Below are positions 14,062 to 58,709 of a stretch of 64,000 nucleotides of DNA, in pieces. The notes beneath the pieces were generated by a model. It was not told the DNA's origin, did no database searches, and worked only from the letters and a program-made list of their open reading frames with translations. The stretch spans positions 47,152 through 111,151 of the IMG/VR virus record IMGVR_UViG_3300038393_001027, one strand, 5' to 3'. Source of the DNA: a virus. How positions within the stretch are numbered: position 1 is the first letter of the stretch; the number at the start of each line of letters is the position of its first letter. The translations under genes and the position numbers were made by a program.

Positions 14062-14062
14062 A

Positions 14063-32411: not shown

Positions 32412-33857
32412 TTAGGCGTTCAGGGCGTCGTGCATGGCGCCCGGATCGAAGCCCGGCACCCAGCCGATGTTCTTGATGACGACAAACCGCTTGGCGTTGT
32501 ACACCACGGGCATGCCGAACATCAGAATCATGAAGCGCTCGGCCGCAGAGATGCGGGCCAGCGGGAGCTTCATGAGCGGGGCAAGCTGGAAGAACCGAGC
32601 GGCCTGCTCCGGATCGAAGTCACCGATCAGGCACCGCGACGTACCGGGGATGTCGAAGTTCCGATCCACGATGACGGTCGTCGCACCCGCAGTGGCCTTG
32701 ATGTCGAAGGCGTGCATGGCCTTGGTCGAACCGCCGATCAGCGAGCGGTAGACCTTGTAGTACCGGACACCCGCCGGGTTGGTGACGGTGATGGTGACCG
32801 CCTGACCAGACGCAACAGCGACGGTACCCGTGACCGGGGTAGACCAGCCCTTGGCGTTGACAGCCACGATGCTGTAGGTGTGCGTACCAGCATCGCCAGC
32901 CGCGAACTTCGAGGTAGCGTCAGCACCCGCCGTGATGGCTCCAGAAAGGGTCGGCGCAGACGGCGCCTCAGCGCTGGAAGCGCTGGTCGGGGCAACCTCG
33001 CCCTTCTGGATGAAGAGGTTGTTCTCGAAGGGGATGGTGCCATGGGCCGATTCGTACTCCTTGATCGGAGCACCAAGCTTCCCGTTGACAGCGCCCCACG
33101 TCGCCCGGCGGAAGTTGGTGGCCGGGTCGGCGCCGTCGCCCATGACGAGGGTCGCCAGAGCGGCCTTGTCGTAGTTGTTGAAGTAGGCGACTTCCGGGGC
33201 GCCATAGCCCTTGGTGGCGATCAGGTAGGCGGCCGCCTCGAAGACGCCTTCGTTGACGAACTTACCCCGCATGTCGATGACGTGATTCGGCTCGTCACGC
33301 TCGATCTGCGCGAAGAGCCCGTCCCACTGAAGCGGATCAAGCTGGGAGTCGCCGTAGAACAGGGCGTGCTCGGTCTGCTTGAGAAGCCACGTGGTGCCGT
33401 CCTGCGACTGCTTGGTGACCATATCGCCCAGCACGTTGCGAACGAGGGTGGCGCCGAGGGTGATGCTCCGGGTAGTACCGAGAAACTTCACCATCGCGCT
33501 CCGGCGCTCCCAAGACGAGTCTTCCTCGTTCGGCAGGCCGCCGTCGATCATAAACGGGCTGGACTTGCCACCGAAGGAGACCATGCGGTTGTACTCCTCA
33601 GTGGTGTTGTAGGCCGGACGCTTGCCCAGCTTCTTGAAGAGCTTCACGTGCCGCTCAGTGGCGAGGGAGATCTTCATGGTAGCTTCCAGCGACTGGGGGC
33701 GCAGGACGCTCATGTCGCCGCCGTACTGGCCGTAGGCCTCACCAGCCTGCCCGGTACCAAGCGCCTTGTTCAGTTCAGCCACGTTTTCGGCAGTATCGAC
33801 ACCCCAACCAGACAGGTTCAGGTGCCCAAACTGCTCAATCCCAAGGACATCAGCCAT
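32412..33857 (-). CDS. major capsid protein precursor
   Basis: LRPQSLE.T, AYNTTEEY, EHALFYGDS, DGL, VIDMRG, L.PLMKLPLA; SPO1/Twort type; predicted cut ELNK31/A32. Confidence 0.95.
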   Translation of the reverse strand: MADVLGIEQFGHLNLSGWGVDTAENVAELNKALGTGQAGEAYGQYGGDMSVLRPQSLEATMKISLATERHVKLFKKLGKRPAYNTTEEYNRMVSFGGKSSPFMIDGGLPNEEDSSWERRSAMVKFLGTTRSITLGATLVRNVLGDMVTKQSQDGTTWLLKQTEHALFYGDSQLDPLQWDGLFAQIERDEPNHVIDMRGKFVNEGVFEAAAYLIATKGYGAPEVAYFNNYDKAALATLVMGDGADPATNFRRATWGAVNGKLGAPIKEYESAHGTIPFENNLFIQKGEVAPTSASSAEAPSAPTLSGAITAGADATSKFAAGDAGTHTYSIVAVNAKGWSTPVTGTVAVASGQAVTITVTNPAGVRYYKVYRSLIGGSTKAMHAFDIKATAGATTVIVDRNFDIPGTSRCLIGDFDPEQAARFFQLAPLMKLPLARISAAERFMILMFGMPVVYNAKRFVVIKNIGWVPGFDPGAMHDALNA

Positions 33858-33899: not shown

Positions 33900-34589
33900 T
33901 TAGAGGGAGATGCCGATGGCAGACGCCACCTGCGGGCTCAACGCGCCCGTAACCTCGTAGCGGGTTACCTCGGCAGAGTCGATCTTGCCCGCAACAGCCG
34001 CCTCGACCAGCTTGTCCGAAATCTGGGCAGGCGTCAGGCCGGAACCGGACTGGGCGTCCTGTTGGCCGCCGATGGACTTGCGCAGAGTCTGGATTTCGCG
34101 GGTATTAACCACCGCCCGGCGCCCGGTCGGGGCCTCCGTCAGGCTCTTCAGCAGGTCGTGGACCTCAGTCATCTGGGCCTTCAGGGTCGTGTTCTCCTCC
34201 ACGAGACCCTTAACCACCTGACCCACAACACCAAGGCTCTTGGCGAGACTGATGTTGAAGCTCTTCTGGGTGTCCAGCGACTTGCTCAAAGTGGCGCTGA
34301 AGCCGTCCACCGTGTCACCAAGCTGAGTCACAAGGGCTTCAAGGAAGTCGCTGACCTCAAGAGCGGCTGGGACGTCTGCATGGGACTTGATCAGGTCGTC
34401 GGCGAAGGACTTCTCGGACTCATCGTCCTCGTCAGCCTCCTCACCAGCGCCCTCGTCCTCATCCGGCTCCCACTCCTCATCACCAGCGCCCGACTTATCG
34501 CCAGACTCCTGCGACTCGGACTGGTCACCTTCTGCAGACTTCAGAAGCTCATCAAGGCTGACATCAAGGCTCTTAGCCAGATCCTCCAT
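33900..34589 (-). CDS. nested in-frame scaffold protein
   Basis: GGAGGTGA RBS at 34604-34597 before internal ATG 34589; acidic and coiled-coil with many K/S sites. Confidence 0.7.
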   Translation of the reverse strand: MEDLAKSLDVSLDELLKSAEGDQSESQESGDKSGAGDEEWEPDEDEGAGEEADEDDESEKSFADDLIKSHADVPAALEVSDFLEALVTQLGDTVDGFSATLSKSLDTQKSFNISLAKSLGVVGQVVKGLVEENTTLKAQMTEVHDLLKSLTEAPTGRRAVVNTREIQTLRKSIGGQQDAQSGSGLTPAQISDKLVEAAVAGKIDSAEVTRYEVTGALSPQVASAIGISL

Positions 34590-35447
34590 ACCTAGTTCAC
34601 CTCCTGCCAGCCTTTCAGCTAGGCTTTTTAGCAAAACCGCCCGGTCGTAACCGTAGCGGGCCGCTTCCTCTGCTACATCGGGGCTGTCAGCCAGCAAGTA
34701 CAGATCGGTGGCGATCCGCTCTGGCGTGAAAGTCTCGATAGCCTTCTTCAGCCCCATGGCCCGGTGCATTCCACCCAGCCAGCGGCCAACTACCAGACGT
34801 ACCCGCCGGGCAAAGTCGTTGTAGGCGGCGTTGGGGTCGCCGTCGCCTTCCAAGCTTTCCGGCATGATGGCCGCCATCCCCGCGGTGTCCAGCGAGAACT
34901 CCAGCGGGTCCTCCGTCCAGTCAAACGACTTGGCGATACGCGCCCAAGCCCCTGAATCCACCGGGTTCATGGTCAGCGCCACGTTCCGGATGATCGACTT
35001 GGTGACCCGGCCGGGGTCGTTGGGATCCCGCTTCACGGCGCCACCTTCGATGGAGAAGCCCATCCGGCGGCTTGCGCCGGACTTTTCGAGCGTTTCCATC
35101 TGCTCGACAATCTTCTTGGTGTACTTGTGCTTGCCGTAGAGCATCCCCTTGATGAAGAAGCCCTCTGGCGTGATGCGGGCCTCCAGTGGTTCACCAACGA
35201 ACTGATCAGGCTGAACGATGCCCTTTCTGTCGTGGTGCTCCCATTTGATGTGACCCTTCTTTAGGAAGTAGCTGTAGTCAATCCCTTCAGGGACCAACTG
35301 CTCATCCTGCTCGTCCCGGCGCCCGGTGTTGGCGACGCCTTCGACGTAGACGTTGCCCGTCACCGGATCAACGGTGGACTTGGTGATCTCAACGCCCCAT
35401 ACGAGGCGGTCTTCCGGGCGAATTTCGGTCGTTTCCGTCGGACTCAC
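33900..35447 (-). CDS. prohead protease fused to scaffold (start uncertain: GTG 35447, ACG 35438 or ATG 35480)
   Basis: G.A.T...D.Q.E, G.IKWEH, GFSIEG, NVALT.NP. Confidence 0.85.
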   Translation of the reverse strand: MSPTETTEIRPEDRLVWGVEITKSTVDPVTGNVYVEGVANTGRRDEQDEQLVPEGIDYSYFLKKGHIKWEHHDRKGIVQPDQFVGEPLEARITPEGFFIKGMLYGKHKYTKKIVEQMETLEKSGASRRMGFSIEGGAVKRDPNDPGRVTKSIIRNVALTMNPVDSGAWARIAKSFDWTEDPLEFSLDTAGMAAIMPESLEGDGDPNAAYNDFARRVRLVVGRWLGGMHRAMGLKKAIETFTPERIATDLYLLADSPDVAEEAARYGYDRAVLLKSLAERLAGGELGMEDLAKSLDVSLDELLKSAEGDQSESQESGDKSGAGDEEWEPDEDEGAGEEADEDDESEKSFADDLIKSHADVPAALEVSDFLEALVTQLGDTVDGFSATLSKSLDTQKSFNISLAKSLGVVGQVVKGLVEENTTLKAQMTEVHDLLKSLTEAPTGRRAVVNTREIQTLRKSIGGQQDAQSGSGLTPAQISDKLVEAAVAGKIDSAEVTRYEVTGALSPQVASAIGISL

Positions 35448-35460
35448 CCCCTGAGAAAAA

Positions 35461-35541
35461 CATGAAACGGCCTCGCCCATACCCCTGCCGACGCCCCCAG
35501 TTACGGGAGTGAGTGGATGAGGTATGAGCGGGCCGTCCATG
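35461..35541 (-). promoter_or_regulatory. long RNA hairpin in the leader of the protease-capsid operon
   Basis: CAUGGACGGCC-CGCUCAUACCUC pairs with GGGGUAUGGGCG-AGGCCGUUUCAUG; G.U pairs form on the minus strand. Confidence 0.65.
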
Positions 35542-35659
35542 AAGGACACGATTGTGCCGCTGGAACCAAGATACCACAGGTGGCTAATTGTTGACAATAC
35601 ATCAGGAAGGAAAACCCTCAAAGATGCCCGAATTTGTGCATCAGAAGGGGGTTTCCGGC

Positions 35660-36208
35660 ATGTACGACGTCATTCTGACCGATCCACCTTGGAAGTATAA
35701 CGCTGGCTATAAGACCAAAAAGGCTGGTGCCGCCACTGCGCACTACCCTACGATGCGACTAGAAGAGCTAAAAAAGCTCCCTGTTGCCAGTCTAGCGGCC
35801 TCCAACTGCGCTCTGTTCATGTGGGCTACGAATCCCAAGCTGGGTGAGGCTGTTGCACTCATGGAAGCTTGGGGCTTCACATATACCACAGTCGCCTTTG
35901 TCTGGGTCAAGACCTACAAGGACGGGCGCCCCATCTGCGGGCTAGGACACTACACCCGGAGCGCTACAGAGCTTTGCCTGTTGGGCATCCGGGGCAAAAT
36001 GCCCCGTGACGACAACAAGGTTGGGCAGGTCATCTACGATCTGGTCCGGGGCCACAGCCGCAAGCCCGACGCACAGTATGAGCGAATCATGGCTCTCTAT
36101 CAAGGGCGCCGCTACTTGGAGATGTTCGCCCGGCGCCCATGGGAAGGCTGGGATAGTTGGGGGAACCAGATCGAAAGTGCCCTTGATGCAGTTCAGGTGC
36201 TCGGTTAA
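35660..36208 (+). CDS. MT-A70 family N6-adenine methyltransferase
   Basis: DPPW, HYPTM, LFMWAT, WGF.Y...FVWVK, YTRS..E.CLLG, HSRKP, LEMFAR. Confidence 0.92.
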   Translation: MYDVILTDPPWKYNAGYKTKKAGAATAHYPTMRLEELKKLPVASLAASNCALFMWATNPKLGEAVALMEAWGFTYTTVAFVWVKTYKDGRPICGLGHYTRSATELCLLGIRGKMPRDDNKVGQVIYDLVRGHSRKPDAQYERIMALYQGRRYLEMFARRPWEGWDSWGNQIESALDAVQVLG

Positions 36209-36214: not shown

Positions 36215-36236
36215 AACCCCGCCAGATGGCGGGGTT
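36215..36236. terminator. bidirectional terminator between convergent genes
   Basis: AACCCCGCC-AGAT-GGCGGGGTT with an A-tract on the left and T-rich sequence on the right. Confidence 0.8.
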
Positions 36237-36444
36237 ATTTCGTTATCACGTGGCGGATGGTGGGCGCCAGCCGCACCGGGATCTCGACACCCCGTTTGCA
36301 CTGAGGGCACTTTCCGATGGCCTTGCCGTCTGTCCGGAAGGTGGTAAGCCGTGTGAGCAGATGGAGATTCCCTTCCTCATCGCGGGTCATGAGGCTCTTC
36401 CCGCAGTGCGGGCAGGTCTTCTCGTAGTCGCTCACACGGTCCAC
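36235..36444 (-). CDS. small zinc-ribbon protein
   Basis: CPHC...CPQC. Confidence 0.7.
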   Translation of the reverse strand: MDRVSDYEKTCPHCGKSLMTRDEEGNLHLLTRLTTFRTDGKAIGKCPQCKRGVEIPVRLAPTIRHVITK

Positions 36445-36447
36445 CCT

Positions 36448-36699
36448 TTACTTGGAAGTTTGGAGGTACGGGGCCGCCTCAGGCGGCGGGGTGATGTCGT
36501 GCTTCTGCATGGCCGGGGCCAGCTTCTGCCAGATGGCGGCGATCGTCTCTTCACAAGTCTGCGGGTCATGAGCCATTTCCCGCCGGAAGCCGGGGATCCC
36601 CTGCCGGAAGTACTGCACCGTAGCGGCTACTTCCTTGGGACCCTCGTTCTCGATGCCCTTATACATGGCAACGTTGAACCGGGGTTCCTTGTTCGCCAC
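36448..36699 (-). CDS. small hypothetical protein
   Basis: GAGGAGGT RBS; AMYK/G motif near the N-terminus. Confidence 0.7.
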   Translation of the reverse strand: MANKEPRFNVAMYKGIENEGPKEVAATVQYFRQGIPGFRREMAHDPQTCEETIAAIWQKLAPAMQKHDITPPPEAAPYLQTSK

Positions 36700-36705: not shown

Positions 36706-39700
36706 CTACCTCCTCAGCAAGATAACGTGTGCAAGGTTGCCAAAGGACTTCGCCACGGCCAGTTCCCGTTCCTTCTGGGTGAAGCCGTGCTTCTCTGCCA
36801 GCCGGGCGGCCTGCGCCTCCAACTGGTCGGCCCGGCGGTTCAGGTTCTTCTGATGGACCTTCCAAGCCTGCGTGCTGAGCATTTCCGTGTAGTTCTCGCT
36901 GACCATCTTCCGCTGTTCGGGGTCCCACACCTTGCGGGTGCGCTCCTGATAGCGGTTCTGGGCGTTCTTCCGGACGTCAGCCGCCATCCGGGTCAGCGAC
37001 TCGTGCTTGCGCCGGGCCGCTTCCACCGGGTCAGCCTTGGACGCCTTCTGGGCACCGAAGCGCTTGTGCTCGCCTGCCAGCGCCGCCTTGTAGCCCGGCC
37101 CGGCCGGAACGTCACCGACGAAGCCTTCAGCCGCTCGGGTAGCCTGCTCAACCGCTTGGATGTTGGAAACCTTGCGGTCGTGTGCGTTCAGGATGTCGTT
37201 GTGGATCGTACCCGGAAGGAAGGGTGACTCGACGGATACCGTGTTGTCAGCGCCCAGCGCCGCCCGCTTCCCCTTGGAGTCGGAGCGCCGGGTACGGGCA
37301 ACCTTCTGCGCCGTCTTCTGCGGGTTCCATTCGTGGTCAAGGCTCAGGAACAGTTGGCCTGTACCGAAGTCCTTGCCCTCCTTGGCCGCCGAAGACATGA
37401 TCATAATGTTGGGGCCGTTCCGGTCGTTGAACGTAGCGGCGCCCTGATCACGGGTCACGGCGTCATCCTCACCCGTGTAGGTGGCATGCTTCAGCTTTGG
37501 GTAGTCGCGTTGGATCTCCCGCACGACGTTCTCCAGCACCTTGGTGCCCAGCGCCACGTACTGCGACGACAGGACAATCTTCGGCGGGACTTCTGGCTGA
37601 CCAGCCGCCCGGCGGTTAGCATTTAGCTCTTCAAGGGCGCCCAAGTGCTTGCGGATGCGCTCACCCATCCATTTTGCCATGGGGCTGTTCTTGTGGAGCG
37701 GTACGAACTTCTTGCCATCCATCACACCGTGGAAGCCCGTCTTGGGGTCCGTATGCAGGGCCGCCACAGCCGCCGCCTCAGCGCCTGCGTCAAGCTCGTC
37801 GCCCGCATTCTTGAGCGCCCGTGCGTACTCCGTGTGTCGATGCAGGGCCTCCCAAGCGTCTGGGGCGTTCATGAACTGCTGAAGCTTGTTCACACCAGAC
37901 AGGTAGCCCGTAGCAGATGACCCAGCGGCGTTGTCATAGCCCGTTGCCGCGTCGCCGCGAAGCTTGGAAAGCTCGTTGGCGCCCATCAGGTCCTTCTCAA
38001 GCTTGAAGTACCGCTCGTAGAAGTTCTTGTGGAAGTCGTCTAGCTGGTTCAGATCCGGGGTGTACATGTTGTAGTCGGCGCCCGACTTCAACTGCTCCAC
38101 CTTGGTATTGAAGTGGGGGTGAACCGGGACCTTGGCGCCGTGGAAAGCGTTCGGCTCACCCACAACACCCTCTGGCCGGGCGATGTCAGGGAACTCAACG
38201 CCCACATCCTCACCCTTGCGGAATTGGACGTACTTCGCCAGCGTCTTGCCCAGTTCCTCCATCTTGTCCGGGTGGACCCGGATGACCTTGCCGCCCTTGC
38301 GCTCGAAGAAGTTGTTTAGGAACTCCTCCTTCGAACCAAGCCCGTGCTGGCCCATCGTACCCATGTTGACGAGGTTCCAAAGCTCCGTCGGGTCGTTCTC
38401 CATCGGCGTGCCCGACAGACCCCAGACGTTCTGGACGCCCTTGGCGCCCGCCACATCCTGCAGGGCCGTACCGCGCGAGCCGTCAGGCTTCTTCAGGTTG
38501 TGAACCTCATCCAGTACCATCGTGTCGAAGTCGCCCCCGGTGAACAGGTGGGCGTTCTTGGCGAAGAAGTCCTGCGACACAACGATGACGTCATGGTCCA
38601 CTGTGCTCATGTCCAGTGGAGACTTGTCACTGTGCGCCAGATAGGGCGCCCGCAGGTCCTCTTCTGGTGTCACCGTACCAAACATGCCGCCCCGGCCGCC
38701 GCTAGGACCGCCAACCACGGCGATCTTGACGTTGGTGTGTCGCTTGAACTCCTTCAGCCAGTCCGATCGGATGCCTGACGGCGCCACGATAACGGACTTC
38801 TTCTGGGGCAGACCCGCCGCCTCAGCTTCAGCCATCTTGTCCACGATGCCCAAGACGCCTAGCTGGGTCTTGCCCGTGCCCATGCCGTGTCCAGCGACGC
38901 CACGCTTGCGGGTGCGCAGAAAGTGCACGCCCTGAAGCTGTGTGTCGTAAAACTGCTGGGTGGTCCACTTCTTGGAGTCTTCTTTGAGCAGGCGCTTGAG
39001 CGCTTCCGCCTTCTTCCCGCCCGCCTTGACGATCTCAGCAGGCTGGTACTTGGCCGCACGCTCTTCCTTGGTCAGGAAGCCTTCCGGCCGCGACTGCTCT
39101 TCAAGGTACTTGTTGGTAACCTCGTTGGCCTTGTCGGTCAGGGTGAAGCCGCCAAAGACCTCACGGAACTTGTCGAACTGGGCCAGCGACATCTTGGCCT
39201 GCCCGTTCTTGTCCACGGGGAGCTTCAGGTCCTCCGTGAACGTCTGCCGGAAGGCCTCCGGCACATGGGCAACCAGATGATCCTTGCCCCAGTCCAGAAG
39301 CGGCAGTGAGCCAGTCAGGGTGTCACGCTTGCGCACGTGGCTAAGCTGGGCGTTGTCGGTGCTGACCTTGAAGGTTTGGTCACCAACTCGGACGCGCATA
39401 ACGCCCGTCTTCTCGCCATCATGCACATATTCATGCTCGATGACGCCTTCCTGCCACTTCGACTGGCCCTTCATCCGGAAGCGGATCCCGTTGCCCTCTT
39501 CGTGGGCAACCTTCTTCATGGCCGTGGTCTTGGTCTTTCCCTCAACCAGCTTGCCATTCTTGAACAGGGCCTTTTGCTTCTGCGCCGGGTCAGTTAGATC
39601 CGCTGAATCGGCGTAGAGCATCCCATCCCATGGGCCGCCGACAACGGTTGGGGTCCCCAGACCGTTGAACTGAAGCTGTAGATGGTGGTGGGCGCCCTTA

Positions 39701-42700
39701 CCAGCCTCCCACTGCGAGTTGCTGATCGTCACCCATGCTTTGCGGCCGATCGACTGGGTGATGGCAAAGTCCAGATCAAACTGAGACTGGATCCCGTTTG
39801 GCATGGAAGACGTGTTGAGCAACTGGCGCATCACCGGGTCCGTTAGCTGACCGTCAGCGCCTACATGGTAGGTAGCAATCCGGCCGTCCGGCATGCGCTT
39901 CTTGAAGGTGATCGACCCGTCATCGGCCACTTTGGGTACCAGATCTTCGGCCCGGCTCAGTTCCCGCTTGGCGGCCTTGCGCTGGACGTCGGCGGCGGCG
40001 TTATCCGTCTTCGACAGGACGCCGCTCCATTCATCCTCCGTCAAAACGGCCAGCTTGTGCGTGTCCTTGTCGGCGTAGTCGGCCCCGTACGCCCACTTCT
40101 CCATCAGTTCGGGGAGCATCAAGCCCTTCTTCCCGCCTGTGGTCCCGTGGACCTTATCGTAGGCCTCCTGCCCGCCCTTGGCGTCGTAGAGCATACCCAG
40201 CAGAGCGCCATAGCTCGACTCGTGCTTCGATACACCCTTGCCGCCTGCGTCATCGATGGACCAGACGTCACCCAACTGGGACGTCAAACCCTCGCCGCCC
40301 TTGGCGCCCTTGTCAGCCGCCTTACCCAGCTTGATCTCAAAGGCAACGCGCTTTCCGTTTGGCCCGGTTGCCATGTAGTAGCCGGGCGGCAGATAGCGGC
40401 GGCCTTCTTTGATCTGCTTGAAGTCGTCAGTAGAGCGGAACTGGTCCCGATGCTCCATGAAGCGTCGCCGCAGTTCTTCCACATCGTCCGTTACGTGGGC
40501 GGTCTTGGCGTCACGTGCTGACGCCGCATCCTGCTGGGCAAGCTCTTCCCCAACATCGTCGGTCTTCTCGTGGAAGTCATGCTCGGCCCGGACCTCGCCC
40601 TCATCATCTAGCTCCTGATGCTTGCCGGACTCCGGGTTGTACCCGGAGTCTGCATCACCAGAGTCATAGAGGATGGAAGGATTGTCCCCGCCCTGAATCA
40701 GGATGTGGTGACCGCCCCATGTGATCCACGCAGAACCGGGGTTGTCCTGCAGGAGTTGCTCCGACCAAGTAAGGGCGCCTGACTTCTGGCTGAGCCGCCC
40801 CTGCTGGTCTTTCACATGGGACTCAAATCGTTGGCGGCCTGCACCACGGACCCACTCACGCACCTTCTGGTTGCGCCGGGTCCGATCCACCGCCGACAGA
40901 TGGCCGTTCGTGCCCATCGACTTCTGCAGGAAGTCAGCCGTGCTGATGGCCTTCTCCAGCAGGGAATCCGCCGGGAGGATCGGCTCGCCCAGCGTCAGGA
41001 TGACGCCTTCAGCACCGTGCGCCCGTACAGTCGTCATGATGTACTCAGTTGGACCCAGCCTGTCGGCGATGGCATCCAGCGACTTGACCACGATCTGCCG
41101 GGTGGGCGCCCAGTCACAGACCGACATGTCCAGCCCGTAAGCGGCCAGCGCGTCTTCCAGATCGGACTCAAAGAGCGACTTCAGCAGGGTGTTTCCCAGC
41201 CCAAAGCCCTTCATAACCAGTTCCTTGATGTGGCTAACCGCATCAGGGTTCTTGGTCACGTAGTCCTTCAGCTTCTTCAGACCCCGGCTGTACCGCTGGC
41301 GGGCGTTGTCGTGACTGATGCCCAGCGCCTGCGCAACGGCCGGGAAGTCGATCAGTTCGGCGCTACGCATGCCAGAACCAAGTCCGTGGCGTGCCTGAAT
41401 GACGGCCAGTTCGTTCTTGTCCAGCCCGGCATCGTTCAGGATGGCGTTCAGACCAGCCTTCTGCGCCTTCCGGACCTCGCCCGCCATGGCCTGCCGTTCC
41501 GTGTCGTTCTCACCCGCAACCTGCTCGTGCTTGGCGATGGCCTTGTCGGGGTGATCAGCGTCGGTCACGTTCCGGTCAAGGCTGGTCGTCTTGTTCAGGT
41601 GGTACAGTGACTCCATGGCCGCTACCTTGTCGCCCGTGGCGGTCAGGTACTCACCGCGCTTGCCCGGCTTGAGGAGCTTGACGTCAGCCCACTCAGGCTT
41701 GTTGGCGTCCAGCCAATCCCCGATGTTCGCCCGGTTGGCCGTCTTGCCTTCCTTCTCCAGCGCTGACTTGGCCTGATGGTACATGGCAAGGGGCGCCCGA
41801 AGCTCACGGGGGAGCTTGATCTGGTCGAACATGCCGTTGCCGTAGCGGCTCATCCGCTGTTGGGCTCGGGCGATGGCGTAGTTGGAGGGGTCCCGCAGGG
41901 CCTGCAGGCGCTCCAAGTTGCCGTTTTCCTTGTTCTGGTTCCACTCACGGACGCCTTCCAGCAAACCTGTGCGGAACTCCTGCGCCAAATCGGAGAAGTA
42001 GCCTGTGTCGATGCCGCTGATCTTCTCATAGGTCTGCACGTGGTCCAGACCCTTGGACTGCATGAACTTCTTCGCCATGTGGCGGGTCATGCCTTCCATA
42101 CGGTTCACGAAGTCTTCTTCGGTCACATGTGCCAGCCTCTCGAACTGGATGGGACCGCCTTCATACTCCCGAACCAGCCGGGGAACTTGGCGCCCGGAAG
42201 CGGTCTTTGCCATCTCGATCTTGGGGAGCCTGAAGTCACCCGAGTGCGTGCGGCCTGCGTTCTGCGCGTCGCCGAACATCTCCGCTACCTTGTCCTGCAG
42301 GGTGCCGAAGTCCTCACCTGTGGCCTCCTTCAGGTTGGCAACCTGCTGGGCGGCCTCCTGCTGGATGGTGTCGGGGGTGTTGGTGCCTTGCTTGTACTTG
42401 GCGCCCGTGCCGATGACCTTACCCTCAGCCTTCGTCCGGGTCAGCTTGTTCTCACCCGTCTTCTGGTCGCGGGTCCACGACGCGACCTCGATCGCCGGAG
42501 ACTCCTCGATGCGCTTCTTCTCAGCGGCCTTGCGCTGGCGGGCGGCCGTCTTTTGGGCCTTCTCCTTTGCCGCCGCCGTGCCCTTCTTGTGCGTCTGAAG
42601 CCGCTTGGCCGTCTCCTTGCCCGGCTTCAGCGCTTCAGCGGTCACCTTGGCCGCCTTCTTTACGCCCTTGTCAGCGTTGACCGTCTTGGCGGCGTGCGCC

Positions 42701-42996
42701 TGCTTGATCTCCGTGCGCTTCGCCATGTCAGCCGGAAGCGTCTCCGGGGCGATGGTGCCGTTGGCCCGGATGTAGATGTGGTGTCCCCGCATGGTGCGCC
42801 ACTCACCGCCGGGGTACTTCTGCTCTAAGTTGCTCCGATGTTGCGCTTCGATCTTAGTGGCCGGGGCTGATGCCTTCTTGACTGGGGCCGCCGCCTTCTT
42901 CGCCGGGGTCTTGGTCTTTGACGCAGATTTGGCGGGGGCCTTAGCCCCCGCCTTCTTCGCCGTGACCGCCTTCATCAGGTTGTCAGCGAAACCCAT
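36706..42996 (-). CDS. 2096-aa polyprotein: sigma70-family factor (aa ~290-580) plus SNF2-family ATPase (aa ~1345-1950); putative capsid cargo
   Basis: Sigma: DLAQEFRTGLLEGV, SNYA, IKLP, TSLD, LAVIQARHGL, VAQALGISHDNARQ...GLKKL. SNF2: GMGTGKT, DEVH, LSGTPMEN, EWNP. Confidence 0.85.
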   Translation of the reverse strand: MGFADNLMKAVTAKKAGAKAPAKSASKTKTPAKKAAAPVKKASAPATKIEAQHRSNLEQKYPGGEWRTMRGHHIYIRANGTIAPETLPADMAKRTEIKQAHAAKTVNADKGVKKAAKVTAEALKPGKETAKRLQTHKKGTAAAKEKAQKTAARQRKAAEKKRIEESPAIEVASWTRDQKTGENKLTRTKAEGKVIGTGAKYKQGTNTPDTIQQEAAQQVANLKEATGEDFGTLQDKVAEMFGDAQNAGRTHSGDFRLPKIEMAKTASGRQVPRLVREYEGGPIQFERLAHVTEEDFVNRMEGMTRHMAKKFMQSKGLDHVQTYEKISGIDTGYFSDLAQEFRTGLLEGVREWNQNKENGNLERLQALRDPSNYAIARAQQRMSRYGNGMFDQIKLPRELRAPLAMYHQAKSALEKEGKTANRANIGDWLDANKPEWADVKLLKPGKRGEYLTATGDKVAAMESLYHLNKTTSLDRNVTDADHPDKAIAKHEQVAGENDTERQAMAGEVRKAQKAGLNAILNDAGLDKNELAVIQARHGLGSGMRSAELIDFPAVAQALGISHDNARQRYSRGLKKLKDYVTKNPDAVSHIKELVMKGFGLGNTLLKSLFESDLEDALAAYGLDMSVCDWAPTRQIVVKSLDAIADRLGPTEYIMTTVRAHGAEGVILTLGEPILPADSLLEKAISTADFLQKSMGTNGHLSAVDRTRRNQKVREWVRGAGRQRFESHVKDQQGRLSQKSGALTWSEQLLQDNPGSAWITWGGHHILIQGGDNPSILYDSGDADSGYNPESGKHQELDDEGEVRAEHDFHEKTDDVGEELAQQDAASARDAKTAHVTDDVEELRRRFMEHRDQFRSTDDFKQIKEGRRYLPPGYYMATGPNGKRVAFEIKLGKAADKGAKGGEGLTSQLGDVWSIDDAGGKGVSKHESSYGALLGMLYDAKGGQEAYDKVHGTTGGKKGLMLPELMEKWAYGADYADKDTHKLAVLTEDEWSGVLSKTDNAAADVQRKAAKRELSRAEDLVPKVADDGSITFKKRMPDGRIATYHVGADGQLTDPVMRQLLNTSSMPNGIQSQFDLDFAITQSIGRKAWVTISNSQWEAGKGAHHHLQLQFNGLGTPTVVGGPWDGMLYADSADLTDPAQKQKALFKNGKLVEGKTKTTAMKKVAHEEGNGIRFRMKGQSKWQEGVIEHEYVHDGEKTGVMRVRVGDQTFKVSTDNAQLSHVRKRDTLTGSLPLLDWGKDHLVAHVPEAFRQTFTEDLKLPVDKNGQAKMSLAQFDKFREVFGGFTLTDKANEVTNKYLEEQSRPEGFLTKEERAAKYQPAEIVKAGGKKAEALKRLLKEDSKKWTTQQFYDTQLQGVHFLRTRKRGVAGHGMGTGKTQLGVLGIVDKMAEAEAAGLPQKKSVIVAPSGIRSDWLKEFKRHTNVKIAVVGGPSGGRGGMFGTVTPEEDLRAPYLAHSDKSPLDMSTVDHDVIVVSQDFFAKNAHLFTGGDFDTMVLDEVHNLKKPDGSRGTALQDVAGAKGVQNVWGLSGTPMENDPTELWNLVNMGTMGQHGLGSKEEFLNNFFERKGGKVIRVHPDKMEELGKTLAKYVQFRKGEDVGVEFPDIARPEGVVGEPNAFHGAKVPVHPHFNTKVEQLKSGADYNMYTPDLNQLDDFHKNFYERYFKLEKDLMGANELSKLRGDAATGYDNAAGSSATGYLSGVNKLQQFMNAPDAWEALHRHTEYARALKNAGDELDAGAEAAAVAALHTDPKTGFHGVMDGKKFVPLHKNSPMAKWMGERIRKHLGALEELNANRRAAGQPEVPPKIVLSSQYVALGTKVLENVVREIQRDYPKLKHATYTGEDDAVTRDQGAATFNDRNGPNIMIMSSAAKEGKDFGTGQLFLSLDHEWNPQKTAQKVARTRRSDSKGKRAALGADNTVSVESPFLPGTIHNDILNAHDRKVSNIQAVEQATRAAEGFVGDVPAGPGYKAALAGEHKRFGAQKASKADPVEAARRKHESLTRMAADVRKNAQNRYQERTRKVWDPEQRKMVSENYTEMLSTQAWKVHQKNLNRRADQLEAQAARLAEKHGFTQKERELAVAKSFGNLAHVILLRR

Positions 42997-44798: not shown

Positions 44799-47700
44799 TT
44801 ACTTCGCCCCCTTCTTGGGCTTGGCGCTGGTGGAAGATTTCTTCGTGGGTGAAGAAGTTCCCTTCTTAGTAGCCGCCGCTTCTGCCATTTCGTAGCCCGT
44901 CTTCTTCGACTTGGTAGTTTTACCCGTTGTGGCGTCTCGGATGATGGGCTTCTTACCCATTACCGAATCACCGAGAGACCCGCTTCCCTTGCCATAGAGC
45001 TTCTCCATGGCCGCCGCGCCCTCAGCCTTGATCTGTGCGTTGCGCTCGGCGTTCAGTTGGCGAGCCGTCTTGGGCTTGGCGGGAGCCTGCTCGGGCGCCG
45101 GGGCCGCCTTACCAGCCTTGACTGGGGCCGCTCCCAGATCCTGTGCCCTTACCTTGGTCCGGGCCGTCTTCGCCATCTCCGACTCAGACTTGGCCGCCGC
45201 CTTGGCGTTCTTGGCGGCCGCCCGCTCGTCAGCCGCCGCCTTGGCCTTGCTGTAGCTCTCCCGCGCCTTCGCCACGGCGCCTGCATCGGCGCCCAGCATC
45301 TCCAACACGTCAGCCACGGTCAGTTTGGAACTCACCTTGTTCGCGTCCACAGACCCATCAGACCCGAACACGTCAGCGATGAGCTTCCCCTTGCGCTCCA
45401 GCACACTCATCTTGCGCTGGTCAATCGAGTCAGCCATCTCAAACTGCTGGTGGTGGAAGTTGCTCTCCTGCCCCTGACGGTAGCCTCGGCCCAGCCGCTG
45501 TTCCATGGCCGCCGGAGTCCACTCGTAGTCCAGATCGATGTGCATGTTGGAGTTGGCCTGCAGGTTCATGCCTTCCGTCCCGGCCTTGGTCATCAGGATG
45601 ACCTTACCTTTGCCCGCGTTGAAGTCGATCTCGGCCTGATCACGGGCCTTCTTCGACGTCGATCCCTGCACATACAGGAAGTCGCTGTCACGGAAGCCAT
45701 GCTCAGCCTTCAACTGCTCCTTCAGGAACTCCAGCGTCCGGGGCGACTGTCCGAAGACGATCGTGCCCTTGCCGCCCTTGTAGTTGTTCTCTTCGTTGGT
45801 ACGTTCCCAGTTTGTGGCGATCTGGTCAGCCGCCTCCGTGATCTTGGGCGATGCATACCCCTTGGTCCGGATCTGCTTCAGGACGGGGTTGGCGGCCTTG
45901 ATGCCCAGCCCTTCCAGCGCCTCCGGGGTGTCGATCAGCCGGGGATCGATGGCGATCTGCTCCAGCCGCATAAGCTGGGTCAGCATGTGCATGTCCACCT
46001 TGGCGGCGCCGTCCATCCCCTGAAGCTCCTCAAGCATGGACCCGCGCAGGTTGCCGTAGAGCTTCTTCTGCGAATCGTCCATGTCCAGAACGGCCACATC
46101 ATGGGTCTTGGGCGGCATGGCGATCTTCACGCGGGGATCCTGCTTCTCCAACATGAAGAAGTAGGGCGCGATGAGCTTGCGCAGGTTCTCGCGCTCGTTC
46201 CCCTTCACGCCGACGACAACCTTGGTCTCGCCGTCACCCTTCAGGTTGGGGATGGTGTCATACTGGGCAAATTTCTGCACGAAGCGCTTCTTTTCACCCA
46301 GTACACCGGGGTTCATGAACTCCATGGCCCGGTAGGTCTCGTCCAGCTTGTTCATCATGGGGGTTGCTGTCAGCCACCATGTGAACTTCGGCGACATGTG
46401 CTCGAAGGCCGCCTTCGACCGGGCGCTCTTGGGATCCTTCAGGTAGTGCGCCTCGTCGAAGATGGCGATGTCGTTCTGCAGGGCGGCCTTGATCTGGGCG
46501 CCCTCGTTGGTCATGATGGCGTAGCTCATGACCACGTAGTCAGCCTTCTTGGCCTCCTTGTACAGGCGCTTGCGCTCCTCCGGGCCGCCGTCGATCTTCA
46601 CAACCTTCTTGCCGTCGAAGAACTTGTGGACCTCACGCTCCCAGCCGCCCAAACGGGACGCTGGGACCACGATGACAGTCGGACCCTTCGCCTTGCCCTC
46701 CTGCTTCAGCTTCTCAGCCGCCAGCAGACTGGTCAGGGTCTTGCCCAGACCCGTACCGAAGCCCAGAACACCCTTCTCGATGGTGTTCAGGTAGTGCACG
46801 CCGGACCACTGGTAGCCATGAGGCTTGATGCCCTTCTTCATGGATTTGATCTTGACCGGATCTTCCACCTGCTGGGCCAACTCGCCCGCCTTCGCCCGGT
46901 CGCCCTGTGACGTCAACTGCTTGTGCAGGGCCGGATGATCCTTCTTCAGGGCGTCCAGCGCCGACTGGTCAAAGCTGAACAGCGGGCCGAACTTATCCAC
47001 CAGCCCGGCCAGTTGCTTGGCGGGGAGCATGTCACCCGGCAACGTCCACCGGGGCTTTGGATAGCTGTCGTAGTAGGCGCCTGTCTTGGCAACGGCGTTC
47101 TTGAAGCTCCGGTGGGTCTTGTCGTTGTTGTTGTAGCCCACCATCTGGATGCGGTAGCTTCCATTTTCGAAGCTGACCGTGGGCCGCAGGCCTCCAGCCT
47201 GCTCTTCCTCGATCTGCTTCCGCTTTTGAGCCAGCCATTCAGCCCCTGAAATACCGCCGGACGGCCCACTTGCGGCCGGGGCGCCCGGCTGGGCCGGACC
47301 ACCTGCAGGCTCGCCCTTGTATGGGGGCGCCTTGGGGTCATGCCGGAAGGCGCCCTTGATGTTGTTCTTGAGCAGGTAGCCCAGTGCCTGCCCCGCATGA
47401 CCGCTGTCGGTCTTGATGGGGATGTGCCAGCCGGGGCTTTCGTCATTCTCCTTCCAGACGCCGCCCATGGCCTTGATCTGGTCCTTGTGCTCGAAGGTGT
47501 TGTTCTTGGCGCCACCCGGCAGAGTCTTTGGGATCACAAGCCAGCCACGGGCGCCGAAGCCATGTTGCTTCTCAACCTGCTTCAGGATGGCCTCAACCTT
47601 GTCACCCATACCAGAGGTGTCCCGAACGGTCGCCGTGGTGCTCGATGACGCCTCAGCCATCACCTCGCGGGCCTTCCGGGCGGCCAGCGTGTGATGCTCG

Positions 47701-47876
47701 TAAGTCATGCCGGGCCATGCGGTCTCGGGCACGATGCGCCCCTTGTGCACGTAGACATGACGCCCGTGCATGGTCACCCAGTGTCCGCCGGGGTACTTGG
47801 ATGATAGTTCCTCACTGATGCCCTTCAGCAGGATGGCGCCCGGCACATAGGTGAGACCTTTGATCAGTAGTTGCAA
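44799..47876 (-). CDS. SNF2-family ATPase with DUF5710/HARP-like N-terminal domains; putative capsid cargo
   Basis: YQ..GV, GTGLGKT, DEAH, LTATPMMN, EGMNLQ, EQRLGRGYRQGQ. Confidence 0.9.
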   Translation of the reverse strand: MQLLIKGLTYVPGAILLKGISEELSSKYPGGHWVTMHGRHVYVHKGRIVPETAWPGMTYEHHTLAARKAREVMAEASSSTTATVRDTSGMGDKVEAILKQVEKQHGFGARGWLVIPKTLPGGAKNNTFEHKDQIKAMGGVWKENDESPGWHIPIKTDSGHAGQALGYLLKNNIKGAFRHDPKAPPYKGEPAGGPAQPGAPAASGPSGGISGAEWLAQKRKQIEEEQAGGLRPTVSFENGSYRIQMVGYNNNDKTHRSFKNAVAKTGAYYDSYPKPRWTLPGDMLPAKQLAGLVDKFGPLFSFDQSALDALKKDHPALHKQLTSQGDRAKAGELAQQVEDPVKIKSMKKGIKPHGYQWSGVHYLNTIEKGVLGFGTGLGKTLTSLLAAEKLKQEGKAKGPTVIVVPASRLGGWEREVHKFFDGKKVVKIDGGPEERKRLYKEAKKADYVVMSYAIMTNEGAQIKAALQNDIAIFDEAHYLKDPKSARSKAAFEHMSPKFTWWLTATPMMNKLDETYRAMEFMNPGVLGEKKRFVQKFAQYDTIPNLKGDGETKVVVGVKGNERENLRKLIAPYFFMLEKQDPRVKIAMPPKTHDVAVLDMDDSQKKLYGNLRGSMLEELQGMDGAAKVDMHMLTQLMRLEQIAIDPRLIDTPEALEGLGIKAANPVLKQIRTKGYASPKITEAADQIATNWERTNEENNYKGGKGTIVFGQSPRTLEFLKEQLKAEHGFRDSDFLYVQGSTSKKARDQAEIDFNAGKGKVILMTKAGTEGMNLQANSNMHIDLDYEWTPAAMEQRLGRGYRQGQESNFHHQQFEMADSIDQRKMSVLERKGKLIADVFGSDGSVDANKVSSKLTVADVLEMLGADAGAVAKARESYSKAKAAADERAAAKNAKAAAKSESEMAKTARTKVRAQDLGAAPVKAGKAAPAPEQAPAKPKTARQLNAERNAQIKAEGAAAMEKLYGKGSGSLGDSVMGKKPIIRDATTGKTTKSKKTGYEMAEAAATKKGTSSPTKKSSTSAKPKKGAK

Positions 47877-52130: not shown

Positions 52131-52141
52131 ATAAGGCAAAG

Positions 52142-52168
52142 GAAAAGGGGGCCGGGCGCCCGGCCCCC
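52142..52168 (-). terminator. intrinsic terminator
   Basis: GGGGGCCGG-GCGC-CCGGCCCCC followed by T4 on the minus strand. Confidence 0.7.
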
Positions 52169-52199
52169 TCCTACTTCGACGGGGTTCGCTTTGGGACCT

Positions 52200-56559: not shown

Positions 56560-56586
56560 GTACGCCAGCCTTCAGAGGCTGTGACA
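56560..56586 (-). promoter_or_regulatory. promoter-like motif TGTCACA-N16-GTAC, copy 6
   Basis: Minus strand TGTCACAgcctctgaaggctggcGTAC, immediately after the portal stop. Confidence 0.7.
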
Positions 56587-56590: not shown

Positions 56591-58648
56591 TTACTCCAAA
56601 ATTTCGATGGTGATGGATTTGGTCAGTTTGCGGCCCTTGGGCTTGGTTTTGGCCTTCGCCTTGTCGGCTTCGGCCTTGACCTCGCGGTCCTTGTCCCGCT
56701 GGTGGCCGTCGTGCTCCCGCTCAACGTCACCCTGCTCCATAGCCTGCGCGTGCTGGGCGGCGAGCGTCTCCATGTCCCGGCCGTGCTGGGCTTGGGCGCC
56801 CTTCTCGTCGATGTCCCCAGTGTACTCAGCTTCGGCCTTAGCCTGCTCATGCACCTGTGCCTGCTGTTCGAGCTTGTGCCCGTGCTGGACCTGCGCAAGT
56901 TCGCCCTTGCGGTCGTCGGCCGCCTTGGCGTTGGCGCCCTGCACATGCCCGCCTACGATGGCCTGTTCCAGCTTCTGGCCGTGCTGGAACTGGGCAAGTT
57001 CCTTGACGTGACCGTGCTTCATCTGCTCCATTTCCTTGGCCTGCCCATGTTGCTGGGCCTGCTGTTCCAAGGTCTGCTGGTGCTGTTGGGCGCCCTGATC
57101 AGCCTGCATCTGGGCCTGCTGTGCCCCGGTGACGTACTGGGCGGCGACGGTGTTCACAGGCTTGTAGATCCATGTGATATCCTCACCTTCAGGTACGACG
57201 CCTTCAAGGGTGATGTCCATGGCCTTCTGCTCGATGGCCGGGACGGTGATGCCCGCCTCCAGCCGGAGCTTGGCGAGGTTGATCTTGGCCTCTTCGTCAT
57301 CCGGATCCAGCCCAACCCACTGGAACTCGAAGTCGGGCGCCACGTAGGGCAGGATGTAGCGGTTGAATAGCTCAGCGAGGAAGGTCATCAGGGGCTTGAA
57401 ACCCTTGTCCTTGGCGTTGTCCATCTTGGACTTCTGGGCGTCGCTCTCCACCTTGGAGTTGCCCCCGCCGGAGGAGAAGCCCCGGAAGCCGATCTCGCTG
57501 GGGTCCGTACCGTAGATGGCGCACGTGATCGTGGTCAGGTACTCCAGCCACGATGAGAACTCCATCTCCTTGTTGTTCTGCTTGAACGGGGTGAAGGCGA
57601 TCCCGGCGCCCTCGCTGGCCGCGAAGAAGGGGACCTTGTGCTTGCCAACTACCCCAGAGACCGTGGCCTGCCACTCCCGGCGGAACTCAGCCAACTGATC
57701 GGGGTCGTACTTGCCCACAGCCGACAGGATGCCTTGAGGCAGGTTCGAGTGGGTGAAGTAGCTGGCGTTGTACTTCTCGGCGTTGAGGTGGCTGGTCACG
57801 GTCTCGATCAGCAGTTCAAGTTCAGAGAGGCCGTAGAGGGCGAACTCGATGTCGGTTCTGGGGTTGCGGATCCCGTACACCAGTGAGCCTGTGGGGAACT
57901 CAGCGATGATCTCCCCTTGGTAGCGCTGGACGTACTCGATCTCGGTCGGATGCGCCCGGCCAACACTGGTCTGGGGTTCATAGACGGGGAACTGCCAGTG
58001 ACCCTCACCTGCGTTGTACTTGTTGTCCACCACAGGCTCGATGGTGGCGGCGTCAACTGCCCACCATTCCACCACCCGGCGCCCCAGCCGATCCGTCACA
58101 TTCTCGAAGGTCACGGCGTCCAGCGTGAGCGAATCCCGAACGATTTTGCGCAGGAAGGTGTCAAAGTTATCCCTACGCCGAACATTCACCGCTATTCCGG
58201 TATTAAGAAATGCCTCCTCCAAATTGAAGGCCTGCTTTTCTTCCGCCATCGTGGGCTTGCGCTTTCGATCTTTTAGCGCAATTTTGAAACCAGTATCAGT
58301 GGCATGATAGGGGCGCCGGGAGAACTTGCTGATCTCATTCATCCGGGTCTGGATGATGGCCGCCACGGGTTTTACCTTAGTAGCCATCTGGCGCAGGATC
58401 TGGAAGCCGATCGGTGACGGCTTGGCTTTGGACCCCAGATAGTTGAGCACGTTGCTGGGGTCCACCAAGATGGCGTTGGGGTCAGAGCGCCGGGCCTGCT
58501 CTAACTGGCGCTTCTGTTGTTCGAGCGCGTCATCACGATAGGCCTTGATTAGGTCCATTTCAGACGTGATGCGGCCCCCGGTCTGCTCCCGCAGGCGGGC
58601 GATGTTGGCGAGGTGTTCAGCGACTTGTTCAACCTGCAATTCGGCCAT
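56591..58648 (-). CDS. portal protein with long Gln/His-rich C-terminal extension
   Basis: AII.TR.N, FLRKIVRDSL..D...FE, VDAATI, NPRTD...YGLSELE, FSSWLEYL...CAIY..DPSEIG, DKGFKPL. Confidence 0.93.
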   Translation of the reverse strand: MAELQVEQVAEHLANIARLREQTGGRITSEMDLIKAYRDDALEQQKRQLEQARRSDPNAILVDPSNVLNYLGSKAKPSPIGFQILRQMATKVKPVAAIIQTRMNEISKFSRRPYHATDTGFKIALKDRKRKPTMAEEKQAFNLEEAFLNTGIAVNVRRRDNFDTFLRKIVRDSLTLDAVTFENVTDRLGRRVVEWWAVDAATIEPVVDNKYNAGEGHWQFPVYEPQTSVGRAHPTEIEYVQRYQGEIIAEFPTGSLVYGIRNPRTDIEFALYGLSELELLIETVTSHLNAEKYNASYFTHSNLPQGILSAVGKYDPDQLAEFRREWQATVSGVVGKHKVPFFAASEGAGIAFTPFKQNNKEMEFSSWLEYLTTITCAIYGTDPSEIGFRGFSSGGGNSKVESDAQKSKMDNAKDKGFKPLMTFLAELFNRYILPYVAPDFEFQWVGLDPDDEEAKINLAKLRLEAGITVPAIEQKAMDITLEGVVPEGEDITWIYKPVNTVAAQYVTGAQQAQMQADQGAQQHQQTLEQQAQQHGQAKEMEQMKHGHVKELAQFQHGQKLEQAIVGGHVQGANAKAADDRKGELAQVQHGHKLEQQAQVHEQAKAEAEYTGDIDEKGAQAQHGRDMETLAAQHAQAMEQGDVEREHDGHQRDKDREVKAEADKAKAKTKPKGRKLTKSITIEILE

Positions 58649-58709
58649 GGTTTGGCCCACCCCCAATCTTGTCGTGTGTAAATTCCGTGGGTGGTGGGTG
58701 GATTCCTGC

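Follow-up and report, generated by a model that had tools for sequence, protein, structure and literature searches.

In this study, we analyzed a 64,000-nt window, bases 47152-111151 of the complete 111,151-bp virus record IMGVR_UViG_3300038393_001027, whose minus strand encodes at 36706-42996 a giant open reading frame (ORF) of 2096 amino acids (aa), hereafter P0001. Profile and structure-model comparisons confirmed that P0001 contains a genuine, very divergent sigma-70-family module, ordered sigma2-sigma3-sigma4, at aa ~293-582, upstream of a C-terminal SNF2 ATPase. The explanation which we favor as a whole, with a probability of about one in two, is that P0001 is a polyvalent head-cargo protein that delivers a sigma factor to the host. 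Extended to its relatives, and then at a little short of even odds, a clade of ~100-kb soil myophages would package a protease-cut sigma, inject it with the DNA and reprogram the host core RNA polymerase (RNAP) before phage expression, the -35 specificity co-evolving with sigma4. New here are same-architecture promoter-like elements in this genome (G000) and in four complete relatives (G002-G005), which occur in 6-14 coding-strand copies per genome and whose -35-like box varies in step with the sigma4 helix. The reading frame proved exactly as given in a preliminary description made from the letters alone, and every sigma peptide string quoted there was found, in the stated order, within aa ~290-580.

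Membership of the sigma-70 family rests on profile and fold evidence, because the scores of P0001 lie below curated cut-offs. Searched alone against Pfam, P0001 matched only Sigma70_r4 among the sigma models, over the 25 residues at aa 553-577 (E 0.014, 15.3 bits vs a 24.1-bit cut-off). This domain is found in 6/6 family members scanned (P0001-P0006), at E 0.028 to 1.6e-4 and always under that cut-off. The NCBIfam model of the sigma-70 superfamily, TIGR02937, aligns aa 294-579 with its positions 4-164 of 165 (E 5e-5), and each distant homologue separately matches RpoD_Cterm over regions 2 to 4 (1e-7 to 3e-10). When an eight-member profile of the sigma region was compared with all PDB sequences, it matched at least 60 entries, without exception sigma factors (best E 3e-11); regions 2.1-3.1 and 4.1-4.2 aligned as distinct stretches, the sigma4 one with an i-E of 8e-6; a single-sequence phmmer search of PDB with the module found no sigma. 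The check suggested in the preliminary description, by hidden Markov models for Sigma70_r2/r3/r4 and SNF2_N, gave a sub-threshold match for r4 and a match for SNF2; r2 and r3 went undetected by single-sequence Pfam.

Structure comparisons point to the same family. With the AlphaFold2 (AF2) model of the module (predicted local distance difference test, pLDDT, 67.5), the Foldseek top 50 consisted of sigma chains only. When 48,161 representative chains were scanned independently of Foldseek, sigma2 or sigma4 domains made up most of the top matches (SigB, Z 8.6; 1sig_A; SigE domain 2; CnrH sigma4; RpoS; pro-sigma-K; SigL sigma4; sigma-28), with RpoS, SigE and sigma-K domain 2 within the top 6. Sigma2 superposes on the E. 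coli sigma-70 fragment 1sig_A with Z 7.8 and a root-mean-square deviation (rmsd) of 2.6 A over 72 aa (VIA-align), sigma2-3 on the s2-s3 part of sigma-28 with Z 8.5 and 5.0 A over 136 aa, and sigma4 on CnrH sigma4 with Z 7.7 and 2.6 A over 67 aa; for the sigma4 domains of CnrH, SigL, SigD, SigR and SigW, Z ranges over 6.0-7.7 and rmsd over 2.1-5.1 A. Such Z values alone are middling for helical proteins, and the assignment is secure because fold-match specificity and sequence statistics combine.

Family-invariant residues fall at functional sigma positions. In region 2.2, D336, L337, Q339, G344 and L346 are invariant; their counterparts in sigma-70 touch the clamp helices of beta'. D474 and K485 in the region 3.2-like linker are invariant as well. 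The module was first described as a complete sigma factor; this stands for regions 2.1 to 4.2, all of which are present, but region 1.1 is absent and W433/W434 of E. coli sigma-70 are replaced, by A-R in P0001 and, family-wide, by [A/T/S]-R with R377 invariant; Y430 is matched by Y or H. Both hallmarks of group 1 (RpoD-type) sigmas, region 1.1 and the W433/W434 melting dyad, are therefore lacking. We take the [x]-R pair to resemble FliA-type group 3 sigmas rather than group 1. With bacterial sigmas (RpoD/SigA, RpoS, SigB/F/G, FliA) the module shares the sigma2-sigma3-sigma4 order, a core-binding motif in region 2.2 and a helix-turn-helix (HTH) in region 4.2. Unlike groups 1-3, it is only ~15-20% identical to them, carries a 17-aa insert between regions 2.1 and 2.2, scores below cut-off and is embedded in a giant protein.

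Full-length relatives are 27-33% identical to P0001 and have a single architecture, which in the full-length alignment runs throughout from a leader and a tag via a variable basic region and the sigma-like region to a conserved middle region and SNF2, the latter fused in every full-length member. An exhaustive HMMER scan with aa 270-610 against 1.8 billion representatives returned seven proteins only, among them four large or truncated relatives (27-30% identity) and one bona fide RpoD-type sigma (E 7.7e-4); no close stand-alone sigma relative of the module was found in this search. P0007, from the same scan, is an unrelated HA-domain protein and was excluded from the family. Additional members were found in IMG/VR on viral contigs of ~94-105 kb, and at least 10 members, with identities of 18-30%, keep both the order and the length of the sigma module. 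In G004, the homologue (9041-16913 of its locus) is split within the SNF2 region into ORFs of 1605 and 749 aa, whether through a frameshift, a misassembly or a genuine division of the gene. For the middle region (aa 693-1310), a PDB profile search gave nothing below E 0.029, ESM Atlas gave no match, and Foldseek returned low-probability rows only, from an AF2 model too poor (pLDDT 52) for a fold match; an internal copy of the tag described below (tag 2) is its only confidently modelled part.

The SNF2 ATPase, also claimed at the outset, is firmly placed. SNF2-rel_dom (PF00176) covers aa 1353-1598 (E 7e-17; 61.9 bits vs a 24.9-bit cut-off; ATPase at nt ~37282-38940), Helicase_C covers aa 1820-1905 slightly under its cut-off (21.4 vs 23.5 bits), P0001 matches phrog_62 at E 4e-38, and motifs I, II and VI (GHGMGTGKT, DEVH, Q..AR..R) are kept in the family. 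The analogy drawn with the RNAP-recycling protein RapA finds no support beyond generic SNF2 membership: P0001 has no RapA match, and two homologues match PRK04914 at only 19-21 bits vs a 576-bit cut-off. The phage encodes three SNF2-type proteins, namely a 1025-aa neighbor, the P0001 C-terminus and a 716-aa protein among replication genes (genome 42319-44466), all of which match phrog_62.

Repeated promoter-like elements are candidate targets of the sigma module. In G000, TGTCACAG-N15-GTAC has 14 minus-strand copies, and the stricter TGTCAC-N15-17-TGTAC has 13, with 0 on the other strand and 0.04 expected. They occupy genome positions 7.5-16 kb and 38-58 kb, among non-structural genes, with one more after the portal gene, and in 12/14 the next features are TAATGAG, a hairpin rich in GC, an A/C-rich leader, a ribosome-binding site and a start codon. 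The exact pattern TGTCACA-N14-18-GTAC is absent from the four complete relatives and one fragment. The relatives' own elements, found by dyad counting only, are CGTAGAG...CGTATGTAT in G005 (12 copies), TAGAAT...TGTGTATAGT in G004 (7), TCCACT...CTATGTAT in G003 (6) and TAGAAT...CTGTGTAT in G002 (6). Strand bias is complete, with coding/other-strand counts of 13/0 (G000), 12/0 (G005), 7/0 (G004), 6/0 (G003) and 6/0 (G002) for at most 0.11 expected, and in G003, G004 and G005, which were checked against head-module coordinates, every copy lies outside the head module.

The two boxes of these elements behave differently. Box B, the -10-like core TGTA[CT], is common to all five genomes and stands ~17 nt from the upstream hexamer, whereas Box A, the -35-like hexamer, is genome-specific (TGTCAC in G000, GTAGAG in G005, TAGAAT in both G004 and G002, TCCACT in G003). 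Identity among those relatives is 49-63% in sigma2-3 and merely 33-46% in sigma4. At the recognition-helix residues that align with R588/Q589/I590 of sigma-70, both TAGAAT genomes, G002 and G004, have x-N-R, and the other genomes have R-Q-R, D-K-W and N-K-Y. A shared Box B together with a Box A that tracks the sigma4 helix is the pattern expected if the module reads the elements, which would make the set a candidate regulon of the sigma module. Of the TGTCACA-N16-GTAC promoters proposed in the preliminary description, the exact pattern occurs, among the genomes compared, in G000 only, and same-architecture counterparts exist in the four relatives, with the -35-like box changing along with the sigma4 helix.

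Two further features accompany the elements. At 53-110 nt 3' of the TGTCACA elements (e.g., 6890-6930), AATGAGGG is followed by a GC hairpin of variable loop and an A/C-rich leader. This AATGAGGG-hairpin segment is conserved in G000, G005 and G004 despite their differing upstream boxes, which suggests an RNA-level role at the transcript start, e.g., as 5' stabilizer or in translation. Separately, the palindrome CTTC[G/C]GAAG has more than 100 copies each in G002 (36 + 71) and G005 (72 + 55) and none in G000; several copies sit just 5' of promoter-like elements, and G005 also holds 68 copies of CTTCGAAG.

P0001 is encoded within the head module. The minus strand reads, in order, large terminase (TerL), portal, a promoter-like element, small genes, a terminator, a spacer, the MuF/ParB-like gene, then the genes of the 633-aa, SNF2 and GNAT proteins and P0001, two small ORFs, a bidirectional terminator, protease-scaffold and major capsid protein (MCP). 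P0001 is hence the last of five large genes in a terminator-bracketed, MuF-headed operon between portal and protease-scaffold/capsid genes. In SPO1-like phages, the portal is directly followed by protease, scaffold and capsid genes; because that order has no gap, the five-gene cargo unit is an inserted, separately terminated unit within the head module. Relatives of ~100 kb have the same synteny. The 420-bp spacer between the upstream terminator and the MuF gene contains an AT-rich TATAGATA-repeat tract, and the cargo operon has no canonical element, only a degenerate TGTGCAT-N17-GTAC.

The proteins of this unit carry N-terminal signatures shared with head proteins. Short leaders ending in phi-x-K/[S/A/G], the slash marking the candidate cut, begin the protease-scaffold, portal, 633-aa, SNF2 and GNAT proteins and P0001, and the MCP leader ends in (E/D)L(N/Q)K/ALGTG in this phage, in all relatives and in the SPO1-like phi18 (Lys = residue 23). 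Herelleviridae capsid proteins lose ~23 N-terminal residues, although no paper confirming their cut site was found in the literature searched. In P0001, seven phi-x-K/[SAG] motifs occur (K9, K596, K606, K638, K682, K692 and K1324, the last immediately N-terminal to the SNF2 core). The five K/[SAG] sites said to separate the sigma and SNF2 parts are real: 5/7 motifs fall within 97 aa directly after sigma4, a clustering with p~5e-4 under random placement. Of 10 members, 8-10 retain K9, K597, K606, K692 and K1142, cluster conservation extending over positions 597, 606, 615, 645, 682 and 692, and the K9 column holds K[SAG] in 8/10 members (IDLxK/[SA]). After the leader, P0001, the 633-aa protein and the 1025-aa SNF2 protein share a 20-residue tag, PGGxWxTxxGxHxY[IV], which recurs at aa 752-767 of P0001; in tag 1, G63, G64, W66, T68, R70, G71, Y75 and I76 are family-invariant. 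In the G002-G005 clade, P0001 homologues and their upstream giant neighbors have at the tag position W-(R/K)-E-E-L-H-P-R-D-x-x-G-(R/K)-F instead of PGGxWxTxxGxH, and the two forms, aligned in the family alignment, may be variants of one targeting module. This combination of leader, tag and K sites is as would be expected of head-protease substrates with a capsid-targeting element, for which the internal proteins of T4 and DarB of phage P1 (PMC9024508) are precedents.

The P0001 module is the only sigma-like match in the 111-kb genome. No beta' subunit was found there, the 738-aa and other large ORFs being devoid of an RNAP signature; a search for a T7-like RNAP (PF00940) was uninformative, as its control matched nowhere. 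Complex prediction of sigma2-3 with residues 200-360 of B. subtilis beta' gave a score of 0.58, the best control reaching 0.00, which lends weak support to an interaction. In the benchmark, the mark was reached by 58/80 solved complexes and 2/110 mismatches, and scores of 0.60 or less comprised only 7/80 solved complexes yet both passing mismatches; these counts are rough, with B. subtilis as a host stand-in and a self-made alignment. Contact agreement between runs was at least 77% and partner pLDDT at least 75. Because solved sigma-beta' complexes exist, the pass may express no more than likeness to them.

From what is directly seen, namely the sigma and SNF2 homology, the operon and head context, the K-site pattern, the tag and the element family with its co-variation, we infer packaging, cleavage, RNAP binding and promoter use as follows. 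P0001 would be made with the head proteins from the MuF-headed operon and taken into the prohead, where the head protease probably cuts it at phi-x-K/[SAG] sites into a ~587-aa basic sigma2-3-4 product, a middle product and a SNF2 ATPase product. At infection, the sigma product would enter with the DNA, bind host core RNAP via region 2.2 and sigma4, and direct it, before any phage protein is made, to the 14 TGTCAC-N17-(G)TAC-type promoters heading non-structural cassettes. Delivery in the particle is the simplest account because the sigma is encoded with head genes but its best candidate regulon consists of non-structural cassettes. The virion-delivered sigma put forward in the preliminary description is in part sustained, by sigma2-3-4 and SNF2 in one head-module ORF, a K/[SAG] cluster between them, a conserved family and the absence of another sigma in the genome; the odds for delivery itself are about even, and a use in dormant or sporulating hosts, also suggested there, is speculative.

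Several observations weigh against this explanation. The co-variation of Box A and sigma4 comprises five genomes and is confounded by relatedness, and a 6-10-aa insert interrupts the sigma4 HTH turn in the G002-G005 clade. With W433/W434 lost, -10 melting would have to follow non-group-1 sigmas. Instead of cut sites, the clustered K motifs may represent a structural repeat of amphipathic-helix type, and the AF2 model sets two of them in helices. Among 50,697 isolated phages, tblastn found no match for the module, the 633-aa protein or the GNAT protein, and for whole P0001 only generic SNF2 helicases; there is therefore no proteomic precedent. Finally, if the degenerate TGTGCAT-N17-GTAC precedes the cargo operon, early expression without packaging may be possible. 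That last point belongs to the main rival, early/middle operon expression with an intracellular role, in which the host holoenzyme transcribes the operon early or in mid-infection and P0001, whole or cut, remains unpackaged and serves the 14 cassette promoters as those of middle genes, the SNF2 part assisting and the head-module location being a historical accident. Sigma homology and promoter family fit this reading equally well, the operon is separately terminated and preceded by a long AT-rich stretch with weak sigma-70-like hexamers and the degenerate element, and all known phage sigmas are made post-infection (PMC7824862). We nevertheless consider it rather unlikely: the operon begins with a MuF-type minor head protein between portal and protease, its proteins share the tag and leaders ending in the capsid/scaffold propeptide motif, and a 16-kb operon of giant proteins would be an odd first transcription unit.

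It is improbable that the module, packaged or not, only docks on RNAP, binding host core so as to sequester it (shut-off) or to serve as an anchor for the SNF2 motor or for incoming DNA, with cassette promoters read by host sigmaA and a separate phage activator in the manner of T4 AsiA/MotA. Region 2.2, the core-binding part, is indeed the best conserved, the sigma-70 melting residues are missing and SNF2 stays fused in all full-length members; moreover, Box B in low-GC relatives resembles the host sigmaA -10 (TATAGT), and a host sigma with a phage activator could read the elements there, a further point against reading by the module. Docking would, however, hardly explain why regions 2.3-2.4, 3.0, 3.2 and a full sigma4 HTH are kept across a family only 18-30% identical, nor why sigma4 divergence parallels Box A, and no other sigma or MotA-like candidate turned up, though activators were not searched for. 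Least probable is a decayed, functionless sigma remnant in a large SNF2 head/replication protein, with unrelated promoter-like elements. Every curated sigma model is sub-threshold for P0001 (TIGR02937, 22.9 bits vs a 42.9-bit cut-off), Sigma70_r2 and r3 are missing from its Pfam matches and the structural model is modest, the low scores and the missing r2 also counting against the preferred explanation; the order and length retained over at least 10 members, the invariant functional residues and the significance in PDB speak against decay. Compared with these alternatives, the polyvalent head-cargo protein delivering a sigma remains the explanation we prefer. Coordinates are collected in Table 1.

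Table 1. Features of P0001, its cargo unit and the surrounding head module (window positions)
Feature	Position	Strand	Basis or remark
Promoter-like elements (5 of 14)	2565-2591, 4127-4153, 5614-5640, 6935-6961, 11000-11026	-	
Major capsid protein (MCP), leader ending in K/[SA] site	32412-33857	-	
Head protease-scaffold fusion, leader ending in K/[SA] site	33900-35621	-	
Bidirectional terminator after P0001 and two small ORFs; end of cargo unit	36215..36236		
Sigma-SNF2 giant protein P0001, 2096 aa	36706-42996	-	
SNF2 ATPase core, N-lobe aa 1353-1598, C-lobe aa 1820-1905	37282..38940	-	Pfam, PHROG
Conserved middle region, aa ~780-1324	39025..40656	-	matches no recognizable family
Tag 2, internal tag copy, aa 743-779 (TWSEQLL..NPGSAWITWGGHHILI)	40657..40770	-	invariant columns
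Five-site phi-x-K/[SAG] cluster (K596, K606, K638, K682, K692), candidate protease-cut spacer	40918..41220	-	
Sigma domain 4, regions 4.1-4.2 (HTH), aa ~497-582, recognition helix ISHDNARQRYSRGLKKL	41251..41508	-	
Region 3.2-like linker, aa ~473-496, conserved TSLD..N	41509..41580	-	alignment; low model confidence
Sigma regions 3.0-3.1 (domain 3), aa ~393-472, including IKLP	41581..41820	-	HMM alignment to SigA through 2.4-3.1
Sigma domain 2, regions 2.1-2.4, aa ~293-392	41821..42120	-	TIGR02937, family alignment, PDB profile, fold
Tag 1, aa 60-81 (KYPGGEWRTMRGHHIYI...)	42754..42819	-	common to the 633-aa and 1025-aa proteins, near their N-termini
Nine-residue leader ending NLMK9/A, candidate head-protease site	42967..42996	-	alignment column
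PGDYG+GNAT protein, 598 aa	42999-44795	-	
1025-aa SNF2 protein	44799-47876	-	
633-aa tagged protein	47882-49783	-	
MuF-like/ParB-like minor head protein, 516 aa	50171-51721	-	
Strong intrinsic terminator, 13-bp stem, 5' of MuF gene; start of cargo transcription unit	52143..52172	-	
Sixth window element, after portal gene	56560-56586	-	
Portal protein	56591..58666	-	
Large terminase (TerL)	61606-63369	-	

The genome as a whole is that of a myophage with recognizable sheath, protease-scaffold, portal and large terminase genes, an MCP 34% identical to those of SPO1-like Herelleviridae, a GC content of ~60%, nearly all genes on the minus strand and direct terminal repeats of 104 bp at its ends. 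Its other half encodes a PolA-type DNA polymerase, a primase-helicase, a ribonucleotide reductase, the third SNF2 helicase and a Cas4-like nuclease. Among sequencing runs, phage DNA was present in soil and rhizosphere metagenomes, three of which may be the source sample, and no RNA run was listed as containing it. The collection of isolated phages (50,697 records) holds no relative beyond the capsid or generic-helicase level, and the sole match in a genome-contig scan, a 2.8-kb contig of a metagenome-assembled genome (PVC group bin), gives no host call. Between the cargo terminator and the protease-scaffold gene, one of the very few plus-strand genes encodes an MT-A70-family adenine methyltransferase (35588-36208; PF05063, E 7e-32). 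Of the two small minus-strand ORFs between the P0001 stop and the terminator (36243-36699), one encodes 83 aa of no family and the other a ~60-aa CxxC...CxxC zinc-ribbon protein, as judged by eye. Only two AT-rich tracts occur in this 60%-GC genome, at window positions 6960-7100 and 52010-52140. Both are ~130-bp TATAGATA/GATGAT repeat elements, mutually inverted, one directly 5' of a TGTCACA element and the other separating the terminator from the MuF gene. The pair flanks the entire lysis-tail-head-cargo region, and functions such as UP element, regulator site or origin are conceivable.

Among described classes, P0001 comes closest to the polyvalent proteins of phages and conjugative elements, which were proposed to be injected and whose SNF2 modules were likened to RapA (Iyer, Burroughs, Anand, de Souza, Aravind 2017, PMC5512222). 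Like them, P0001 is a giant multi-domain phage protein with SNF2, encoded beside MuF and portal genes, and it shows the architectural features of the class, being large, located beside portal/MuF/head genes and composed of disparate domains (sigma, middle region, SNF2). It differs in that it has no MuF, zincin peptidase or LPD domain, MuF being a separate gene that heads the operon, and in that its processing would use the head protease at K/[SAG] sites; the word "sigma" is absent from that report (PMC5512222). The best experimental analogue is DarB of phage P1, a 250-kDa helicase protein whose gene adjoins those of portal and prohead protease, and which is packaged via an N-terminal signal and believed to be ejected (PMC9024508). 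As a methyltransferase-helicase, DarB acts in anti-restriction; it lacks a sigma module, and no sequence relation to P0001 is shown; a DarB-like PHROG match (3e-9) belongs to the 1025-aa SNF2 neighbor and not to P0001.

The statement of the preliminary description that no example had been described needs one amendment: our literature search found nothing on a packaged or co-injected sigma apart from Salmonella phage Arash, whose virion proteome lists a sigma-annotated Gp10 (24 unique peptides) along with phage RNAP beta and beta', the authors allowing for carry-over (PMC10585845). Arash thus has a sigma-annotated protein in purified particles, but it packages its own RNAP beta and beta', and its Gp10 is a separate protein without similarity to the P0001 module (no tblastn match in the phage collection). 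Stand-alone phage sigmas (SPO1 gp28, gp33/34, T4 gp55, jumbo-phage group 2; PMC7824862) provide a sigma-70-family module that retargets host core RNAP to phage-specific promoters, as that of P0001 would, but they are small, separate and made post-infection, whereas the sigma of P0001 lies inside a head-module protein of 2096 aa. Virion RNAPs (N4 gp50, phiKZ vRNAP; PMC7318152, PMC4666361) are the functional analogue, particle-carried transcription machinery reading early genes before phage protein synthesis; they are whole polymerases that do not need host RNAP, whereas only a specificity subunit, acting with host core, would be carried here.

If the proposed mechanism is correct, natural orthogonal sigma/promoter pairs would be available from five phages, with one -10 box and genome-specific -35 boxes, and a transcription-initiation factor would join the catalogue of polyvalent or ejected cargo domains. 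In the current view, phage early transcription relies either on the host holoenzyme acting at host-like promoters or on a virion-carried polymerase, as in N4, phiKZ and crAss-like phages. Delivery of a sigma would lie between these two and cost far less than a polymerase, explaining how early cassettes with non-host promoters may fire at time zero, and would constitute a third start mode for phage transcription, besides the host holoenzyme and the injected whole polymerase.

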